Source of the DNA: Yuukianura sp. NJ FZ-2021
Lineage: Eukaryota
Assembly (NCBI GenBank): GCA_046563655.1
Contig: CM102290.1
Coordinates: forward strand, 1,116,001-1,180,000
Direction of reading: 5' to 3'
DNA: 64,000 nt
Below, piece after piece: positions 971 through 34,813 of the stretch (within the stretch, counting starts at the first letter, position 1; every line of letters begins with the position of its first letter). The position numbers and the translations under genes are program-made. The notes under the pieces were generated by a model, which was given only the letters and a program-made list of their open reading frames with translations, ran no database searches and was not told the origin of the DNA.

Positions 971-3900
971 TTCCCATTGATGCGGAGACGGTGGTAGCTC
1001 CGAAGGATGAGCCACGGTCGAACTGAAAACAAACAAAAATTTAAAAGTTATAGTTTATTTCTAAAATTTAAATTTTGAAAAGTGGAATTCCATATTAGCT
1101 ACGACATTATTTCGAATTACTGCGATTCGATATTTGTTGGCTATGTTTTCAAGTGTTGATTCAAAATTACAGTTTATTTAACTTGGAGGCTTTCGTTTTC
1201 GTTATGAGTTTTTTTCAAAGTTGCAACAATTAAAATTTCTCAACTTCCACCTCTTTCAACCCCGAGCCAAAGTAAGCAAAGTGATGACAGATTTCGCACA
1301 CTGTGTGAGCATAGTAGTCCCCCCATAGGCTAAAAGTGGTGTTGCTAACGTCAAGAAAGTGAAATCTTGTACGATTATGAAAGGTGTCGTCATTTCATCC
1401 AAGGAAAGTGAACCAAAGGGGAACAATGACTCCAAGGAAAAGAAAAGTTAACACTCCCGCTGCCACTTCCTACATTTTGACACTTAAATGCCTCACGAGT
1501 TCTCTTTTCCGAAGCATTTCGCTGACTAACACGTAAAGGAACAACAAATATGGCCACCAATTCCGTATAGCAGTCTGGCACGGCAGGCTCTGCGCAAGCG
1601 CAGCTATTCTAACCAGTTTCAGGACCAATCCAGCCTATGTACACACCAACCAACCTCATAATGGACTCCTTTGATTTACTTGGGTGAGCAGCAGAGGCCT
1701 TGATCAAATTCCACGATGGAAAAGCATGGAGCAGGAGAAAAGGCCTTCACAACTTTCCCCAAATTCTGGTTGACGTCACCCAAAGACCTACGCTAGCTTT
1801 CATTTCCACGAAACCTGTCTCTCTCCTGATGACTTCCAGCGAAGATCAGACCAAAAAAATATTAGATCTTCCATGCCTGAGCCACAACCACACCATCCAC
1901 CTCTAGTTTACAAAAACAAAAAAAAAGTTTACAAAGCGACACTTTGACCTTAGGACTAAGCGTAGGTGAACCTACGGTTGGAATGAAAGTTCATTTGAAA
2001 GTTCTTGCTAGCCCCACATTTTCGCCACCAGTCCCAGATTGGGTAATTTATAAACTGCAAACGTTGGCTCAATCGTGTCAACTTTTTTTTGTCATTTTGC
2101 ATACGCTAAAACTTTCCGGGCAAGAGGAATTGAGTGAAGTTTGCTTGTGTCTGAAAATCGGTGCTCAAAGACCCTCATCAAGTTGATTATGTTATTTTTT
2201 AAGGTTTGAATCTAAGCCACTCACCTTGTAAAACTCTTGAAAGCAGCCGAATGAGGATTGATACATAGCGGAGTTCTGTTGTTCTGAGCGTGGTCAGCCA
2301 CGAGGCGGTAGAGCTCTTCCTTGACTTGGCTCAGTGACATGATCTTCCGTTCCCAGCGATCATCAAAGGCTCGATCGGCACACGGTTCCAGGTCAGGGGC
2401 ATAGATGCGGATGCCAGTGGACGACGTTCGACAACAACGACACATGCAAGAGTGGAATCTGAGACGACCTTCGTCTAGGTACGGATGGTTCAGAGCGTCC
2501 TCTACATTCACTCGTTTCGACTAAAACCAGAAAAAAAAAATTAGTTTAGAAATCTAGTAATTAGAATTAATAATCTAGAAATTTAGTAATTACTAATATT
2601 TTTCACTTTGTAAGATGTTGTACTTTAAATAAAGTTAGCTTATTCTTCCACAAATGTTTAAAAAACTTTTCAAAATATTTTGTTAGAATTGTATTTAGAA
2701 AATTGTGTCAAGAGGCGACGGAAGGAAATGGTTTTGGAGTATTGAAACTATGGCCGGATAAGAAAAAAAAATGGGAGTGCTACATGAAACATGAAATCGG
2801 AAGTCATGAACCAGGTTCACTTCCGCACTTTTTCTCCTTATTGCAAAAATGGGTTTGTTGCATAAGTCTTTTACTACACAAAGTTACATCTGATATGTCC
2901 CATAATCGCTGCAAATCAAATTTCGTCACTCACGACTTTTGTCTCGAAAGTATACACTAATTACATCATCACCCATTGAATGTTAGTGTTTACCGGGTCA
3001 AAGACGAGCATTTGACATAGGAGATGTACTGCTTCCGGTGATGCTTGGGGTGATAAGGTGTAGAGTGCTGCTAGTGTAGAGGCCTTATGTGGCTTTTTGA
3101 GCATATGGGCTCGAGCTCCTGAACAAGCGGACCGAATGTCCTCTGGTTTCGGCGTCCCCAACAGATCAGATATCATGTCCAACTGTAACGAAAAAAGTAC
3201 AAAGAAACTTGGAATTATTTAGGGTACTACTGCTTCCATAGTTACCCGGATTCAAATTCATCATCCCCTACTCAAACACTGCGACGATTGAACCCTCTGT
3301 GTCCGGACATACTCTCTTTTAATATCATTCCCAACACACCATCATCAATTCATTCATTCAAAGGGCCCTCCAAGTCCCCCTCTCCATTCAAACGCTGCCT
3401 CCATGATGCATCCACCATTATTGGAAATAAGGGTTTTGGAGGACAGGAAGCACAGCGTCGTCATGACCCAAAAAATGGAATAATTTCCAAATGGAGATTC
3501 AGTCTTGGTGGTGAGTTCCCCCAAGTCCAGAACGTACTAACACAGAGGCGCTGGATTTTGAAATTCGAAAAAGTAAAAAAAAAACGTCAGAAGCTGGTAA
3601 CCCGAGACGAGTGTAAAGCTGAAGGCTACCCGGGAGGAAGTTAGGGGGGAGAAGAGGCACTTGACAGATGCAAAGGGAGGGTAGTGACTACTGTAACCAC
3701 TGATCATGAGGCCACCACCAGTCCTCTCTCAATCTACTAACATGGAACATACTTTCCCACACTTACTCAAAGTGTATTGTCTCATCTCCCTCAGATTCAA
3801 AACAGATTTAAATGAGGACAGGAAATGTTAAAGGCTCAAAAGGGGCTTTCACAACAGATCAAATAAACAGGCTCAAGGGGTGTGGGAACCTCAAGAGTCT

Positions 3901-6900: not shown

Positions 6901-9900
6901 GGTTCTGTTTTGAGTACCAACAAATTTAAGATCAAGGACCCTGGATCTGACGCCATGAGAGTTCCCAGTATTACAAACCAATCGTTAAACAAATAGACTT
7001 AAAATTCACAGAAATTTTTGAGCACTGGAAACAAAAGTTAAAAATTGTGTTTTCTTACATGAAAAAGACGTAAATGGAATCACGTCACTAGTTTGTGTGC
7101 TGCTTCTGTGTATTTTATCTGCTCGTGTATATCTGTATGTTAGTATTGAGAATGATTGGCGAAAACAAGTTGTTTTCGCGAAACTCATGCTTCGTTATTT
7201 TTATTTATTTTTTGTAAATCGACGTATTTCAATTTGCAAAAAAACAGGTAAAACAAAGTTTCCAAAAATTCTATTTCCGAGAAAAAATTTCGCCGAATTC
7301 TGGAGACGCGTCATTTTTTTTTTGTATGCAAATTGTTTCTCGCATTGAATTTCATCTACTTTAGTTTCAGCAGAAACTCAATCAATGGGAATCAATCTAT
7401 CCAATTTGCCCTAAACCTTTCAGATTTGGAAATTTTTAACTGTTTTGCACAACTCCACATGTCAGATAAATAATATAATAGATTATATAAAAGTTGACCT
7501 AAAAATTTATTGAGTAATGATCAATATAAATATCGTACCTCTGAGAATTTGGTATAGAAAGACTTTGATGTGATCGGCAGACAGATGTTGTGGTGAGACA
7601 ATGATTTTGTGCAGATCACTCTGCATCAGTTCTGTAATAACATAGCTAAAAAAATCAAAAAACAATATCAGACAAATGAATGCTACTCCCGGAATTCCGG
7701 GTATCAAAATTTCGACAATTCTTTAGAAAGTGGTTAATTTGGCCACAAAGACTGTTTCGGCTAATGTTAAAATTTGAGGTGACTTTCGTACATTTCTTGG
7801 AAGAAATCAATATGCGGTGGTTGGAGAATGTCGAGGGCCGAGAGGACATTGTCATGTTTGAAGAAGCACAACATTCGTAGTTCTCGACAGACTCGACGGG
7901 CGGATACCAGTGATTGGAACACATTCGGTAACTTCTTCAGAGCAACACGCTTCCCGTCTCGTGGATCTGTGACGGCCCTGCAAAAATAAAAAATTAAAAG
8001 CGTTATTTTCACTGTCTAATTTTAAAAAAATCTCTAAAATCCAGCATCAGTCTCTGTTGCTTTTTGTTTTTGAATTTCATAGAGCTCGCAAAAGAAACGT
8101 TGAAAGTGAAAAGTTTCAATCTTAAATTTTGAGACGCAACTTTCAAGTTCTACTTATAACGTCATGTGCTACTTTTAAATTGCCTTCCTAACCAAATAAA
8201 TGTTATGAACAACGAGATGCAGTTTTCGTTTGCACATTTAGTGACAAAAAAGACTGTAGTACGACGGAAGCCCAATCTTGAATTTTGCAAGAATTGTCAT
8301 TTTTGATTAAAAGAGAAGTCTTGTGTTTTGTGTATTTGGGAGTTCTACTGACACACTTTTTGTGTCTTTTCTCTTCCTAAAGGTCATTCCTCAAAGCATG
8401 CATCGTGCTTCATATGTCGTAACAAGACCCAATTCCTAACCATTACCATTATTCACCACCTAAGGACCAAATACTACTCACCCTGTGATTCCTTAAATAA
8501 CAATCAGCCTACTGCCCACACATCTTTAGAATACAGTGTACTATGTTCAAAACCAGTTCACAAAAAACGTTTTTTTTTTCCACTACAGCATACTAACTAC
8601 GCGGGAGGAGTTCAAAAACGCTTGGAGAGTTTAGTCAAAAAGTTTCTTCGGGACTGACGATTAACCTGTTTAAGAAAACAAGCCATCCACTCCTTCAATC
8701 CACATCAGCCTTGACCCCATTCCAACCTCACCTCAACTCCCCAATTTCAAACTAAACAGAAATTTTGAGGTTCAAAACAAAATTTGTAGGTTGAGAAGAA
8801 ATTCGTAGGTTCAAAATTTGTAGGTTGTGTTATTGATTTGAGTATATGTTAGGGATGGAGCCTTGGATTCAGTAATGACTACGGTATTCAATTTGTGTTT
8901 CCATACGTGTTGATGACCCATTTCCACAAATAAAAGGTGAATAATAGTAGAGTGAAGCAAGGGCTCTGATCTTCCGAAGCTAATAATAGAATCAAATTCC
9001 CTCTAGGAATAGAAATTGGGTTAGTCATTCTTGGAGAGAAGTTTGGAATTGGAATAGGCCCAACCAGAAATCAGTGTCTTTTGGAACTAACTATTGAGAG
9101 CCTACAAAACCTACGCCAATTGACCTACAAAACATTCAATTACTCATTCCCAATTCCCATAGTGTTGGAGAGTCCTTCGAATGTTCGGAGCATCTTCCCA
9201 ATTCCAATCCAATTCCTGGGTCACAGCAGTTCTGGCCAAGTCGGAACAGGAGAGCATAGTTCGTTTGACCCAATTGGCAACTGACTTCATATGTTATTAT
9301 TAGTAATTACCTGCAAGAGCCTAAAATTATTTTAGTTGGCAGCACAAGTCGTCTGTGGCCCTGAACACTTCAGTTCAAGGCCCAACCAGTCACAGTCTCC
9401 CTACATTCCTCATTCCCAAACGCACTTTTCCTAATACAGGCCGTTGTCGTGCTGAGAGACTCCATTTTCTTAGCTCCTAGCTCCCTGTACAATTTTATGT
9501 ACACAAAAACTAAACGTTCACATCATACGCACCTTTCAAATTCAAATCCCCCCGCGGAATTTCATAAGGTGGAAAAGCCTTATTTCAGGCTGGCAACAGG
9601 CATTGGAAAATTAATTCGGATTACAAAATTTCAAAAATTTTCTCATCAACATGTTCAATACAAATGCCAGATTTCGTTCCATTTCTAAAAAAAAGTGAGA
9701 ATTTCTCTTTAGTTTTTAGTTGTTAAACAATCTTAATGACATTTCCGAGGTTTTTGAATCGACAATGAGTGACTTGGTGCAGACTTTAAATGTTTTTTGA
9801 CTGAATTTGCCGCTCATAATCTTGAATAATCTGCCTTAACGGGTCTTTAAAAAAAGTAAAATGGAGTAAACAGAGGATGCTCCACAGCGATTTCTGTTTT

Positions 9901-27081: not shown

Positions 27082-30000
27082 CTACGGCCTCTGGAATTTG
27101 CCGAGTGCATGGAGTCCACACTGAGCCGTTTGGAATTGTTCATTATGTCGAATCCATTTATTTGACACCCATTTATCACCATAGAGAACAGGACAGGCTC
27201 CATGCCTTGTGTTCTCATCTCCAGTGCCGGATCGATCCAAATTCCACCAAAAGGCTGCGGCTCCTTTCGTTGGCCACAGAGTGATTCCGGAACGCGGAAA
27301 CACCGTCGCCCCACCCTCAACATTAGACAACTGGAAACAGATCAGGTTCCACTTAGTGGTGAAAGTTAGGTTGTCTATGGACACTGACGGATGCAAAATG
27401 TGGACCACTTACGTAGATCATTAGTGTTGCAATTCGGTCTCCCACGAAATGTTCCCAGGGTGAGTACACGTCTGGATTTGGATTATTCATCAAGTGGTCT
27501 GTGTGTGGGACGTAGAGGCCTCCAAGACCGTAGTTTGCAATCTAGTGTTTATTTTTCAAAACATTTCAAAATTTGATTTTTTTCAAACATTTAGAAGCTT
27601 CCTCCCAAGGTTCCTTGACAACCAAATTGTATACTCTACAACAGGTTGCTCAATAACTCGGGGTTTTCAAAAATCTTGGTGGAAACACTTTTTTGAACCA
27701 ATTCCCTACCATACAAAGGCACGGCGAAGACAGTTTTGTAAATTATTTAACAAAATTATGGTTAAATAATTGAGTTATTGAATAACCTGTTGTAGAAATC
27801 AACAATCTGGTTGTTTACCAACCTTGCTTTCTCCGGATTAGTCCATTTAGAGAGTTAAAGTTATTGCTGACCTGGTAGTCTTCTGCTTCCTTGGGTTGAG
27901 ATGCCTTAAGTCCTGTGACCAACTGTACTCTCTGCGTGAGCACTTCCATTAAGGGGTCTTCGTTTTCCTTAATCCAGGCACTGAAAATTCATCAATTATT
28001 TTAATCATGCATTTCAAGTTGAACCAATTAAAACACAAAAATGCATTGGAAGTGCAAAGCGTGAGGTGTGAACGGCAAGAGTGCTCACTTTTTGCTTGTT
28101 CGAATATTGCTTTTGATAAAGGTCCCATTTCGTGTTCCGTGCATCGAGGAATAGAGCTACAATATTTGAATTTTTTAAAATTAGTTTTCCAGAAAACTTT
28201 GCATTGAACATGCGTGGTAGTGATTTATAGCTGCTGATTCCCTCATTTACTAAAGAAAGCTAAGCGACCCTTCGCATTTACAGCATTGGTGCGAATTGTA
28301 AAAAAGAAAGGCGACCCAATAGATGTTGAAATCCTTTTTCAAGAATATTAACTCAAGAATATTTTTGTTCAAGAATATTAACATTAGGCTCAACCTGAAG
28401 TCTATGTGCAATGTGAAAGTGTTTTGAAGGGATTGTTGCAATACTAACTTTTGGCTAATTCTTTTCTGACTAACGATGTCTTGCTTTCCATTTTTATGAT
28501 GCCTATGTCTGGAACGAGACAACTGAAAAGTTTGGATTTTTAGAAAAAAAATTAATACGACAATCTGCTTAGATTTTGAGATCCTCATTTCAAAACAAAG
28601 AATGAAATAATGCTGGGAATAGAAATAATCGTTTGTGTTTAAACTCACTTTTGGTTTACCCAAAGCGATCATGCGATCCGCCTGCGCAGGCGTCACAAAC
28701 TCATGGATCATAACGACGTAAGGATCTCGTGACTGTTCTTCAATCTGCAAAATGAAATATTACAGACTTAAGAATAAAATTGTTGGTTTAATTTTTGACT
28801 ATTTTTTTGTTATTCCTCGCTTTAGCGTGATCTGTAAATAAGTTTTTATTTGGTTAGGCAAAAGAATTTGTTTTTTTCTCTGTTATTTTTAACTAAAAAA
28901 AGCTTTCTCCAAGTCTAGTTCCAAAAAATTGCAGGGGAGCCCCTTTGCCTTCAGGTTTAAGTTTTTGGAGGCAAATATACGAAGATCGGTTGCTCCACTC
29001 CAACGTAGAAATGTAAATAGAAGAAGAAAAGTATTCCGTCAAATTTTTAATTTTTTCAATTAAACATAATTCACTGTTATATAAAGAACTTCAATTTATA
29101 CAGTTGTGTAACTGAGCTTTACCTTTAGAGGTGATATCCTTAAGTACCCCGAACCGTCAGATTTAAGTCGACACTTTAGGTTAGATTCGATTTCCATTCC
29201 CTGAAAGCGAAACATTTTGGTTTACTAATCAATAATATGGAAAACAATCTAAGCTAAATTTTAATGTTTTACCCGCAGCTTTTCTCCTCGGCAAAGACGA
29301 ATGTAGTGCTCAATCTCTTCGTCCTCCGTTTGTCTCTGGTACAGTTTAGGAACAAAGTCATTTCGGCGTGAAGCCTTGTACTTGTCATTTTTGGCAAGTT
29401 CTGGATTAATTGGAACCGGATTGGTTTTCCAAGCTACGCCGCGTGGGCCTTGACGCTCCAAAATATCATCATGCTGAAACAAAAAGAAGCGGTATAAAAT
29501 TAAAACACAGTTTCGCATACCGTTTCACGTTAAATTATGCATATGAAGAACTAAATTAGAAAATTCAAAAGTTTACCACTTCAATGGCTGATCGTAGTGA
29601 AGGAACAATTTCTTCTAGAATTCCACTGGAGTTGCTCTCGCTTGCAGCCAAAGATTTGGCTGTTCTCAGCCATTCAATAGCTCTATGGTAAAGGCCTTGA
29701 GAGAAAGCATGTTTTCCCAGAAACAACATGTCGCGAGCCGTCAGTCCAAAATTACCAGCAAACTCTACAGAAGGAAAAAGAAGCAATGCAGTTTTTTTAA
29801 AAAAATTCTTCGGTAAAACGTTTCTCAAATTTAAAAAGTTAACTATACTCAACAGCACAAAGTGGATGAAACCCTAAAAAGTACAGCGTTTTTGTTCTAC
29901 AATTTTTAGAGTATAACTTAACATAAAAAGACAAATTTAAATTATTTGAATTTGATATTTCAAAGAAAGATTACTTTTGAGACGCTTGAAACGTGTAAAC

Positions 30001-33000
30001 TTGAAAATAAGCGTTGCTTCGTCTAGTTTTATAAAAAAAAAAGTTACAAAAGAGTCAGAGTGACCTGGAAGCTCAGCGGATCGTGACATATGGATCAAAG
30101 CGTTCTGGTCCTTAGGACTATGCATATGTTTAATTCTTCATTAAAAGGCTAAGTCGTTCCTGGTGGATGGATGAGCAACGATGGATTACCTAATCCACGG
30201 TTTTCAATCTTTCCCAAAATCACGGTCGCCACCTCTCCAAATAGAGTTCACATTGGGAAAAACACATAAGAGGTTAGCACCTATCCAAACCCCCACTTTA
30301 CTTTTTCCTAACACCTTCATTATCCGTCTACGTTCGTTGAGCACCTAACTGTAGCTCCAACCATCAAAAGGCTCATCGCCTTTTAAGTTCCGTAAACAGT
30401 TCAAAACTTTTTTGACGAAATAAAAGATTTTAATCGGGTTTGGCATTTTAAATTTCGCAAAATTCGGTTTTTACAAACAAAAAAAGCGGAAATTCTGATA
30501 GAGTTTGTCACATTTCTGGCGACTAGATATTGTTCAAAAAGCATTCGTATAAGTTTTACTTATAAGAAATAAGCATTGTTCTATCACTCAGTGCCGCAAA
30601 AATGCAAGTAAAACGAATGCAATGTTCCTGATGTGCAAAGCGGAAACCGTGCGTAATGCTTAATGTGTCAGGAACTTATTAGATTCCTTTGGATTGGATG
30701 ATTCTTAATCAGGCATAAGATTTGCAAGAAGCGTTTACTAAATGTGCAGAAGTAAACGCTGGTTTTCACTACAGGGAGTGTCAATTGCGAAAAAGTGAAA
30801 TCACAAATTCGGCATGGTTCATTCACAGTTAATGAAGAAGTTACAATGCGTTTTCAATTTTTCAATTTTTTTCAAAGAACGTTTTCGTTTGTTACACATG
30901 ATGAAATAGCGTCACGAAATAAACAAAATATGCGTCGTAATGTTGCAACAACATTGACGTTCGAATCTGCCCAGAATAGTTAAAGACATCTGAATTGTCA
31001 CAATTGACTAAAATTTGAAGCAGTTAGGTTTCAAATTTCATAGAAAATTTATGTCTTTACAAAATTACAACAAAAGATTTCGTGGCATTTCGAAAATTAG
31101 ACACGATTTTTTTTTAGCGTGGCAACCTCCAAAATCCATTTCGCAACAGTGAAATTTTTCAACATTTTCTGTATTTTGCAAAACACTGACTTAAAAAAAT
31201 TGAATCTCCAGTAGGTCCTATCCTGACGGATTTGATCCAATTTGCGCCAAATAAAAAAAAACAAAGAGAAAAGATGGAAGATCTGCGTGTTTCTAACCCT
31301 TCTCTTGAGATGTCATTTGTTTGGGCACTTTGATATTCCCAGTTGCAAAGGAATTAATCCTGAGCTGGTATGTGTCTTGCAACCGAACAATTGCTTGAGC
31401 TGCTCCATTGAGATCTTCAAGACGCGGAAAGTTATTTCCATCTCTGTAGGACTCGACCCATGTAAAAACACCTAGACAAAAGAAAAAGAGATATTTTATG
31501 CAAAGAATAACAGGGACTATCTGACACTTGACAATAAATGGGTGTTGTTCGTTAAAACAGTTTTAGAAACTGTTTCTTTTGGCATTATTGCAAGAGCGGA
31601 TCACCTCAAATCTAGAAATCAGCAATCATTCCTCCCATTTCGCAAATCCTCAACAATTTCAAACTTTATAGTCATTAGTCAAACTATGCAAAGGATTTTT
31701 CCCGCTCTACAGCCCTTTCTTAAAAAGAATGCTTCCATTTGTATTTGTAAATTTGCAATGGAAATAAACTTGGAACAATCGAAAATCATCTAAGTGCTCA
31801 CGCCAGGGATGCTAGGCTTTCAATAAAGATTCTTAATGGGTTTGGTCGGGCAAAACACTAAACTTTGAAAAGGAGAATTTTGCTAACAAGACGAACAGTC
31901 CCCAGTATAAATTGGCCCATGTCTAATATTGGCACGTTGGGCAATGACAGGAGGTTGGGTTTTTACAATTTGCAAATTGCAAAGATTGGAATGAGGGATG
32001 GATGAGCTGCTCTGATGCAACACAGTGTGCATCTCCTTGTCCTAAATTATTCTAAGTTCTCACGACTGTCTTCGCGAGATGTTTAAAATACTTTTTTTTT
32101 AAACTATTTTAAAATAAGTATTAAAAAAGTGCAGTTGAATTGGACTTGTCACAAATCAACAATGAAATTGTAATTCGAGAAAGTCCATTTTTGAAACTCA
32201 CAGATCTTTTTCTCTTCACTTGTTCAATAAGCACACACTGTTCCCCTTACGAATCAATTGGAATTGATGATGCTGAGTTTAGAAGTGGTTGGGATGCGGA
32301 TTTTGACTATGATTAGCATCTTCCTAGTTGGGAATTGGGAATTGATGAGTACCAAAGGAGAGAGTTGGTCTAACGTAAGTGGTGTACAAGTGAAAGGGAC
32401 TTCTCAAGTACTAGAAAATAATTAAACCGTGGATATGTAAACCTACGCGTCAAGGAACATCTTCATTAGACGCAAAACAACAAACAATCAACACTTGTTT
32501 TTCCAATTAACCAGTTTAACTAGAAACGGTTGTAAATTCTCCACAATGAAGTTTTTAGCCCGAAAGCTTCGGATTTCATCGAATGCGGTAACTCGGTATG
32601 TTTTATATTTCAAATTAACCTATCTTTTAAAATTTAAATAAATAAATACTTTTCAACTTTTGAAAGTCAAGTGTTGCATAAGTAAATTCTTGAGGATACT
32701 ACGTGTGAAGAAATGTAGTGCCACTTTTGTTGTCAGTAAATGAAGATGCGCATGAGCAGACACTTTGGGCAATCAAATAAATTTGGCTGGTCAGGTGGCA
32801 TGAATCCTGAAATTGTGATTAGTCAGCTAAAGGAGACTACGACCAATATGCTTTTGAGAATTGTGAAATGACCGACATTTCGGATTTTTAACCTGCATTG
32901 AATTGCTGCGTTGTCATTCCACATACACAGACTCTCTAAGGTTTTAAACTGTTGATGAGTCGTCGCCTTTGGACAATTGGAACTGTGAGATGTCTGTGTC

Positions 33001-34813
33001 TGGGTCAGTGTATAGACTCTTTCATCGTCCAAATGACTAATCGTCCATCAAATGTAATTAGCTTGAAACATTGCTTCGTCGTAGTTTGATGCTAGTCGAT
33101 TAAAGCAGCGCAGTGTTTCGTCAAAGTGGGACTTTCGCCCCACTGCTTCCGACATTGCTAAATTTCAGTGTCATTTCCATGTATGGCGTTGTATTCATCA
33201 CGCTCTTCCAATTGGAACTCCTTTCGAGACGGAAGCAAAAGAAGTTGGTCACTTCAACAATTGCGGCGTTTTCATTTGATTGCAAACGTTAAGTTAGGAT
33301 TTCAATCTAGCACGTTTTCAAACCCAGCAACTGCTGTTGGGCGTCATGTTCAAGAATTGCTAACAGAAGCAGAAGGTATGCTCGGACTTGTTCAAAATCA
33401 ACACTAAACAAAAAATCAAGTCCCTTCACAAGTTTTGTCACAATTGAAAAGCTGTGTAAATATTTAGGCTGTTTTAAAGAGTGTTTTTTTTTTCCAATTT
33501 TTGTCAAGAGCACATACAAAATGTAAACGGAACAGTACAGCTTGAATTATGTACTTGCGGTAAAAATTCGTTTTACGTGTCGTTTTCTGACACAAGGTTG
33601 CCGTTCACGGGTGAAGGGCTAAGGAAATGGCAGCAACTCCGCGAAATCTTCCATGTTCAACAGTGACGTGTGTGTCTGTCTTTACTGCTGTGTGATCCTA
33701 AATACTCGTATTATACCAGTTCCACTCTAAAGTGACATAACGGTACTTAAGTTGACTGATTTGGAACTGAAGTTCAGTTTAGAATTGTCAAGTAATGTAA
33801 AAATGTAAATATTAAACTAGAACCAGGATCCATACTTTAGCAAGTAGCGAAATTCTCTCAACTATTTGCGCCACTTGTTGACTGACATCGCACGCAAACG
33901 ACAAATGTGGCTCCCTTCTCAATGTTTTTTTTAAACGAACTTGAAAACAAACTTTTGACAAAAAAAAACTGTATACATTTTTAGCTAGTAGGTTTTCGGA
34001 AAGGGGAAAATTGAATTTTGAGTGTTGTAGAAAAGTTCAAGTTGCTCTACTTTCTTTGCTCATTTGGCGTCAGTTCCCTAATTAATCTGTATCATCATTT
34101 CTGTAAAACCGTGTACATTTCATTAAGATCAGGAGATCGTTATAAGGAAACATGATGGTGCTAAAATGAAATGTATTGTTGGTTACAGTTTAATGAAAGG
34201 AAAGCGGCAAAAGTTGAATTTAGGGAAAAATAAACCAAAAAGCTATCCAAACGTTTGGAAAGATGCGCTTTCATTGTTGCAATTTAAATTCGTGTAAAGC
34301 AAAAAAAAAAAAATCTGAACTTTTTTTCTGAAAATTTACCTTGACTATAATTGGCAATCCCATGAAGAGCGATATGGACATCTTCCCAATCTGCCGTTAG
34401 ACGACGGAGCAACAAGTAGGCATCAACTGGATGTGCTACGATGTTGTCACTAGTTTTTCCATTCATTAATAGTCGTTTCTGATCCTCAACATATCTGTGC
34501 TCAATTCCAAAATTTTGATATATAAAAAATATTATGTTTTAAAAGAAAAATTGAAAGAAAATTCTACTTACGATTTGATTGTTTGAGCTTTCTCGGCGAC
34601 ATAGTCTGCAAAAGTGTCCAGAAGATCCACAATCTGTAATTCATTCTCCACTACTTCTGCCAATTTCGAAGTAGAAGAAAATAAATCCTCGCGTTGATTT
34701 GGCATCACCGATTTTTCATCGAAACTGGAAGCAAGAGGTCCATTGTCTAAAATCACCGCCAGGCAAAGTATTTTCCAGATCAGGAACATCTTGCGAAGAA
34801 TACCGGATGTCAT
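27082..34813 (-). CDS. P4HA: Collagen prolyl 4-hydroxylase alpha subunit, 11 coding exons, ~564 aa (isoform with exon 28522-28449)
   Basis: Exons: 34813-34572, 34494-34340, 31471-31298, 29764-29577, 29473-29273, 29200-29123, 28744-28649, 28522-28449 (or alternative 28156-28089), 27980-27872, 27541-27413, 27330-27082; total 1695 nt. Has a signal-peptide-like N-terminus, HPVDAYLLLRRLTADW, EDLNGAAQAIVRLQDTY, ANYGLGGLYVPHTD (HxD), GDRIATLMIYLSNVEGGATVFP, TRHGACPVL and KWVSNKWI. Confidence 0.95.
27606..27826. mobile_element. P-element-type MITE in a P4HA intron
   Basis: Termini CAAGG...CCTTG with ~54-bp imperfect TIRs (core CTACAACAGGTT-(G/A)(C/T)-TCAATAACTC). Flanked by an 8-bp near-duplication, CTTCCTCC (27598-27605) / CTTTCTCC (27827-27834). 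Confidence 0.7.
28089..28156 (-). CDS. P4HA: Alternative (mutually exclusive) exon of the prolyl 4-hydroxylase alpha gene, LYSSMHGTRNGTFIKSNIRTSK(N)
   Basis: Acceptor tattgtag| and donor |gtgagc; 68 nt. Same phase 0 to 2 as the 74-nt exon 28522-28449, and the peptide is homologous to LSRSRHRHHKNGKQDIVSQKRISQ(N). Confidence 0.8.

Follow-up and report, generated by a model that had tools for sequence, protein, structure and literature searches.

The stretch analysed here, 64,000 nucleotides of contig CM102290.1 of Yuukianura sp. NJ FZ-2021 (positions 1,116,001 to 1,180,000; hereafter the window), carries on its minus strand a collagen prolyl 4-hydroxylase (P4H) alpha gene in which a small exon of the catalytic domain is present in two adjacent copies, exons A and B. 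It is very probable that this exon of about 70 nt, which encodes the hairpin loop at the substrate site, was duplicated in tandem in springtails and that one copy is taken per mRNA; the duplication itself most likely arose in the springtail lineage. In the mechanism that we propose, transcripts with both copies or with neither would run into a premature stop and be removed by nonsense-mediated decay, leaving two enzymes that would be the same apart from 22-24 residues that line one side of the peptide-binding site. The B form would carry the ancestral pancrustacean loop (…NGTF.KS..RTSK), in springtails with an NGT sequon at the predicted turn, and the A form a longer, polybasic and His-rich loop (…RSRHRHH…KRISQ).

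Anatomy and Reading Frame of the Exon Pair

Direct reading of the minus strand shows the upstream constitutive exon with its last base at 28649, ...GGTAAACCAAAA at its end and gtgagt after it. Between ...cttttcag and gttagt, exon A encodes LSRSRHRHHKNGKQDIVSQKRISQ plus two nucleotides, and between ...attgtag and gtgagc, exon B encodes LYSSMHGTRNGTFIKSNIRTSK plus two nucleotides. In the downstream exon, which begins at 27980, the first base finishes an Asn codon and AWIKE comes next. The two small exons are adjacent and homologous, both have AG/GT splice sites, equal phase and a length of 2 modulo 3, and their peptides share 9 of 24 positions in a hand alignment. An earlier note on this DNA had given coordinates, lengths, phases and peptides for both exons, all of which proved correct, and had regarded them as homologous copies of one small exon that exclude each other by reading frame, a view borne out by what follows.

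Both exons start in phase 0 and end after two bases of a codon, and therefore the use of both or of neither shifts the frame, as had been predicted, and leads to a premature stop. Scripted joining of the exons left the frame open with A alone and with B alone, gave a stop inside the downstream exon when A and B were joined, and gave a stop after three codons when both were skipped. Exclusivity is thus enforced at least by the reading frame. Exon B had also been described as invisible in the list of open reading frames (ORFs), and the reason is simple: its open frame extends only from the acceptor's TAG to one codon into the following intron, which makes it too short for the 25-residue minimum of that list. 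The contrast drawn earlier between a His/Arg-rich A and a neutral B held for A (seven Lys plus Arg, one Asp plus Glu, three His) but not for B, which is basic (four Lys plus Arg, no Asp or Glu, one His).

For a wider search, 47 distinct hairpin peptides from relatives were compared by tblastn with the window and with 50 loci described below (51 sources). Within the 64-kb window exons A and B were the only two matches, with E-values of 7.5e-9 for A (best query P0064) and 3e-8 for B (best query P0004), and a third copy of the hairpin exon in the window is thereby ruled out.

Conservation and Selection

Metagenome contigs scanned with the last exon of the gene gave 239 pattern matches and 50 confirmed loci, among them three genomic contigs of springtail type that cover this region (L001, L004 and L025; taxa assigned from similarity only). 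L001 belongs to a close relative (96% in the last exon), with A at 755-828 and B at 1308-1375, and the Folsomia-like L004 has the two at 8854-8927 and 9291-9358. Both contigs agree with the window in having A before B, in the lengths of 74 and 68 nt and in the AG/GT sites. Exon A of the window is conserved in L001 (22/24 residues), L004 and L025, and exon B in L001 (19/22 residues) and L004. The search of orthologous loci for both exons, which the earlier note had suggested, thus found the pair kept in three of the four springtail genomic sequences (window, L001 and L004) and A only in the fourth, L025. Over all 51 sources the hairpin exon was found in 37, with two copies only in the window, L001 and L004, although many loci are short and mRNA-like and unable to show two.

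In L025 exon A (1963-2036) is followed by an intron of 1282 nt without Ns. Exon B was not detectable in this intron: the 47-peptide tblastn gave only one place in the contig, and three B peptides compared with its six frames scored 17-24, against a mean of 23 and a highest score of 38 for shuffled sequence. By its sequence, this region (1963-3421) looks like a secondary loss of the ancestral copy that left the derived His-rich loop behind.

Between the window and L001, exon A differs by 7 synonymous and 2 non-synonymous changes over 24 codons (86% nucleotide identity) and exon B by 10 and 3 over 22 codons (78%). The flanking constitutive exons show 16 synonymous and 8 non-synonymous changes over 33 codons upstream (72%) and 21 and 4 over 35 codons downstream (71%). 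The alignment of the introns is poor; their 62-68% ‘identity’ in a gap-tolerant global alignment is probably about the level of unrelated AT-rich sequence. Since the changes in A and B are mostly synonymous and the introns align poorly, both exons are under purifying selection at the protein level. Intron 1, if kept before exon A, would add 42 residues without a stop. This open frame is probably due to chance in an AT-rich intron, and the counterpart in L001 is 102 nt long and poorly conserved.

Both Forms in Other Springtails

The springtail pair is already annotated as two RefSeq isoforms of Folsomia candida, of which X1 (P0064, XP_021954738.2) is A-type and X2 (P0007, XP_021954740.2) is B-type. 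They fall into one 90% cluster and, at 98% identity, match everywhere except between the conserved GKPKL and AWIKD. Other springtail-like products are A-type (P0001, P0002 and P0005 (Orchesella cincta)) or B-type (P0003 of Allacma fusca, and P0004), and in tblastn on the window the A-type proteins match exon A and the B-type proteins match exon B. The contig that encodes P0001 (L002) is intron-less across the region and contains A only. When residues 392-446 of P0064 were used as a protein query, just one of six candidates scored. From the conservation of both exons, the Folsomia isoforms and the intron-less contigs with A or B in relatives, we infer that both exons are spliced in Yuukianura sp.; the choice between them may be regulated. 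Three of the four named springtail records have only one form annotated, and alternative exons as short as these are missed when a genome is viewed through its ORFs. A literature search on springtail and invertebrate P4H splicing gave no relevant paper, and none on the springtail pair.

The Encoded Structural Element

In a phmmer comparison with sequences of the Protein Data Bank (PDB), residues 408-429 of the Folsomia B form, which correspond to the exon, align unambiguously to ...KSSVVDNESGKSVDSEIRTS... of the Chlamydomonas P4H (2jig, 3gze), and the exon also aligns to the equivalent part of the catalytic domain of human alpha-2 (7zsc). Because the Chlamydomonas construct begins at residue 29 (PMC9676403), the exon is equivalent to Ser77-Thr94. 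That paper describes this segment as the hairpin loop, which together with one other loop sequesters the peptide substrate, and states that splice variants of the type I collagen P4H (C-P4H-I) alter the hairpin loop and those of C-P4H-II the betaII-betaIII loop (PMC9676403). The segment had been placed earlier in a flexible loop by the substrate site, which agrees with this alignment. Given what the loop does in the Chlamydomonas complex, it is plausible that the choice of exon changes substrate preference.

A structural model of the B-form protein P0007, made from 11 alignment rows, has a mean predicted local distance difference test (pLDDT) score of 53. Only its local secondary structure over residues 408-426 was used, where 10-residue blocks reach a weak pLDDT of about 64-66; at this low confidence it has strands at 408-414 and 420-426 with NGT at the turn. 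An AlphaFold2 model of P0002 from a 7-row alignment (mean pLDDT 40) was unusable. The Asn-Gly-Thr is present in all six springtail B exons (window, L001, L004, P0003, P0004 and P0007), and N-x-S/T at that place is absent from all eight A exons and from all 14 of the crustacean-type exons compared. Collagen P4H resides inside the endoplasmic reticulum lumen, and therefore the B form may be N-glycosylated on its loop.

Origin of the Pair

An alignment of the segment from 85 proteins separates two types. The canonical type (L/F-x-R-A-T-V...T-G-x-L-E...Y-R-I-S-K) is found in insects, nematodes, molluscs and vertebrates, and includes both vertebrate and both scallop copies, with 52-77% identity among the canonical groups. 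The second, crustacean-type segment (L-x-x-S-x-H...G-x-F..S..R-T-S-K) is found in crustaceans, ticks and the present springtail gene. Exon B has a mean identity of 50% to the single exons of crustaceans and of 24-32% to the canonical groups, and exon A has 37% to crustaceans, 36% to ticks, 33% to B and 27-31% to the canonical groups. The Daphnia-like genomic contigs L049 and L020 have a single exon of 68 nt, the same length as B, and barnacle exons combine features that are split between A (SRHRH, R-I-S-K) and B (G-x-F). Judged by these comparisons, B is the ancestral form common to crustaceans and A is the derived, His/Arg-rich copy. As B resembles the crustacean single exon and A is derived, an independent duplication in springtails is likelier than inheritance of the vertebrate pair, and the duplication most likely arose in the springtail lineage, independently of exons 9/10 of vertebrate P4HA1. 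The earlier note had left the choice between an ancestral and a convergent exon switch; the data favour its second option and not its first.

Weighing the Alternatives

It could also be that A and B stem from the same ancient event as the P4HA1 exon 9/10 pair, which would then be bilaterian and lost in most lineages. The human alternative exon, 71 nt and 24 residues according to the supplement of PMC8373072, runs from Leu to Ser-Lys as the springtail exons do, and therefore the exon, its boundaries and its phase are shared. The same paper places the last common ancestor of the P4HA1 event at Bilateria, citing Caenorhabditis remanei, and scallop isoforms switch the hairpin exon too, so that the arrangement is widespread. 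In the C. remanei models, however (P0127 and P0168 compared with P0138), the tandem duplicate is the exon of the His-x-Asp strand instead of the hairpin, which may bear on the dating to Bilateria in PMC8373072. Furthermore, A and B do not pair with the vertebrate copies, as they have 24-29% identity to either of them and 33-50% within the crustacean-type group, and they share the S-x-H signature of the crustacean-type paralogue and not the R-A-T-V of the vertebrate and scallop copies. Finally, the single exon of the Daphnia-like contig L049 lies between introns of about 75 nt, which leave no room for a second copy. A common bilaterian origin of the two pairs therefore seems unlikely, though not remotely so.

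Two other explanations accept the duplication but not the production of two enzymes. One of the exons might be a decaying, unused duplicate, with a single protein made; the weak acceptor tract of exon B in the window and the springtail contig L025, which does without exon B, would fit this. It is nonetheless very improbable, because the window, L001 and L004 all keep open frames, AG/GT sites and length class for both exons, because in each exon synonymous changes against L001 far outnumber non-synonymous ones and nucleotide identity exceeds that of the flanking constitutive exons, and because both forms are annotated in Folsomia, with spliced or annotated products of either type in other springtails. 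Alternatively, the second exon might serve mainly as a poison cassette, in which inclusion of both exons or double skipping lowers enzyme output through nonsense-mediated decay. The early stops from both kinds of transcript would allow for this, but a poison exon would not require a P4H-like peptide, and yet both exons are conserved at the amino-acid level and each occurs alone in full-length products of relatives, which makes a role mainly as a poison exon extremely improbable.

Several points weigh against mutually exclusive splicing of a springtail-born pair, in addition to the bilaterian dating cited above. The argument on its origin rests on 22-24 residues, and A is only weakly closer to the crustacean exons than to others. 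Exon B of the window has a weak, A-rich tract before its TAG acceptor, and B could therefore be a minor form. The pair is dispensable in at least one lineage, as L025 has no exon B. Mutually exclusive use in Yuukianura sp. is an extrapolation from relatives, and one known counterpart, Folsomia candida X1/X2, is the orthologous gene with the same exon pair in another species, known from automatic RefSeq models. As to mechanism, steric exclusion would require a shorter intron than the 292 nt that separate A from B. Inverted-repeat scans for docking and selector pairing in the introns, of the kind seen in insect exon clusters, gave short AT-rich pairs (8 in the window, 13 in L001 and 26 in L004), with no shared arrangement among the three. 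As a separate observation, positions 9077-9090 of L004 are complementary (12 nt, 92%) to the 3' end and donor of both A (8918-8929) and B (9351-9362); the window and L001 have no matching arrangement, and the sequences are AT-rich.

Comparison with Known Exon Pairs and Implications

Alternative hairpin exons of P4HA1 have reportedly been known since 1989-1994, from work of Helaakoski et al. of 1989 and 1994. The statement of the earlier note that vertebrate P4HA1 switches this same segment is supported by PMC9676403 and the supplement of PMC8373072, and by the P4HA1a isoforms X1/X2 of the fish Hypomesus, which differ in exactly the hairpin block. Exons 9/10 of vertebrate P4HA1 (9a/9b, 10a/10b) are the same catalytic-domain exon as A and B (71 nt in human, 74/68 nt in the springtail), and both pairs encode the hairpin loop and share a frame-based logic of exclusivity. 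The pairs differ in the paralogue, since the vertebrate one lies in a canonical P4HA1/2-type gene and the springtail one in a crustacean-type gene. They also differ in the divergence of their copies, which in vertebrates are 68% identical and both have R-A-T-V and in the springtail are 33% identical and have S-x-H. In PMC11868403, the choice between human 9a and 9b and its regulation under hypoxia are described, and it is stated that until then it had not been elucidated what the two forms mean for function.

In the scallop Ylistrum balloti, isoforms X1/X2 differ from X3/X4 in exactly the hairpin segment, in a mollusc and in a canonical-type gene. The scallop proteins also show another switch, of about 55 residues in the peptide-substrate-binding domain (P0182/P0180 versus P0110/P0181), which combines freely with the hairpin to give four isoforms. 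Exons 12a/12b of vertebrate P4HA2 are likewise a tandem-duplicated catalytic-domain exon that alters a substrate-binding loop, but this is the betaII-betaIII loop and not the hairpin, according to PMC9676403. Duplicates of the His-x-Asp-strand exon are also tandem and in the same enzyme family but concern a different exon, which is single-copy in the window. This exon (…ANYGLGGHY.PH.D…) is duplicated or alternated in the PHY-2 models of C. remanei, in Littorina saxatilis (P0051/P0085) and in Batillaria (P0056).

Work continues on how collagen P4Hs select their X-Pro-Gly sites. What the springtail pair adds to the known systems is a probably independent origin in a different paralogue, together with very divergent alternatives and, in one springtail contig, the apparent loss of the ancestral copy. 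A second, probably independent, switch of the hairpin loop, between forms that are 33% identical, differ in charge and possibly differ in a glycan, would provide a useful comparative handle on the role of the loop. We tentatively propose, as a possibility that we hold with considerable doubt, that the hairpin exon is a duplication hot spot with independent pairs in at least three lineages (vertebrates, scallops and springtails), and that the springtail switch toggles between an N-glycosylated ancestral loop and a polybasic His-rich one. One gene would then provide two substrate specificities, and the derived form alone would later have become fixed in one lineage. If this were true, the specificities might suit different sequence contexts in collagens or cuticle proteins, and the springtail pair would exemplify recurrent exon duplication at one structural element.

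The Gene and Its Locus

Judging by its closest matches, the locus is a springtail (Collembola) collagen P4H alpha gene. As a class, collagen P4H alpha subunits assemble with PDI into an alpha2-beta2 tetramer that hydroxylates X-Pro-Gly. The springtail orthologues P0002, P0064, P0007 and P0003 match about 11 exons between 34771 and 27085 in tblastn (Table 1). A protein search with the last exon, in a collection that did not include proteins of the species of the window, gave 63 of 79 candidates at E<=0.001, and the top named ones were Allacma fusca (84%), Orchesella cincta (75%) and Folsomia candida (73%). For the domain P4Ha_N (PF08336; cut-off 25.3 bits), the exon translations at 34329-34493 and 31338-31481 score 27.5 and 37 bits, compared with 84.7 bits for P0064 and P0007, which are full-length orthologues. 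For 2OG-FeII_Oxy_3 (PF13640) the last exon alone reaches 23.3 bits, below the cut-off of 27 bits because it is a fragment, and the full-length orthologues reach 42.5-43.2 bits. The human alpha-2 catalytic domain 7zsc matches orthologue P0007 with an E-value of 1.4e-55 (phmmer against PDB sequences). The catalytic residues are all present, namely the His-x-Asp motif (PHTDH, exon 27541-27413) and, in the last exon, the distal His and the Lys 10 residues on (TRHGAC...GDKW). A cluster of P4H paralogues in the window was ruled out, as tblastn with the orthologues and the hairpin peptides found one gene only.

Table 1. Exons, introns and extent of the collagen P4H alpha gene in the window.
Feature	Position	Strand	Basis or remark
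Collagen P4H alpha gene, coding part	27085..34771	-	5' limit approximate; stop codon 27082-27084
Constitutive exon upstream of the pair (IEEQSRDPYVV...ALGKPK), phase 0 end	28649..28744	-	cag acceptor before 28744; GT donor 28648-28647
Intron 1, 126 nt, open in exon frame	28523..28648	-	Sequence read
Alternative exon A, 74 nt, His/Arg-rich version of the hairpin loop, putative derived copy	28449..28522	-	Splice sites; matched by A-type P0002, P0064
Intron 2, 292 nt, between A and B; poorly conserved versus L001	28157..28448	-	Sequence read, alignment
Alternative exon B, 68 nt, putative ancestral-type version of the hairpin loop with NGT sequon	28089..28156	-	Splice sites; matched by B-type P0007, P0003
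Intron 3, 108 nt	27981..28088	-	Sequence read
Constitutive exon downstream of the pair (AWIKENEDP...EAEDYQ)	27872..27980	-	First base completes split codon
Exon with Fe(II)-binding His-x-Asp (…VPHTDH…), single copy in the window	27413..27541	-	3' end approximate
Last coding exon, distal iron-binding His (TRHGAC), Lys ten residues later	27085..27330	-	Sequence, tblastn, Pfam

A minor observation concerns two Daphnia proteins, P0195 and P0197 of Daphnia pulex/D. pulicaria. They are 559 residues long, are named ‘nucleoporin NDC1-like’ and cluster at 90% with Daphnia P4H alpha, without the hairpin segment, which looks like an oddity of naming or of the gene model.

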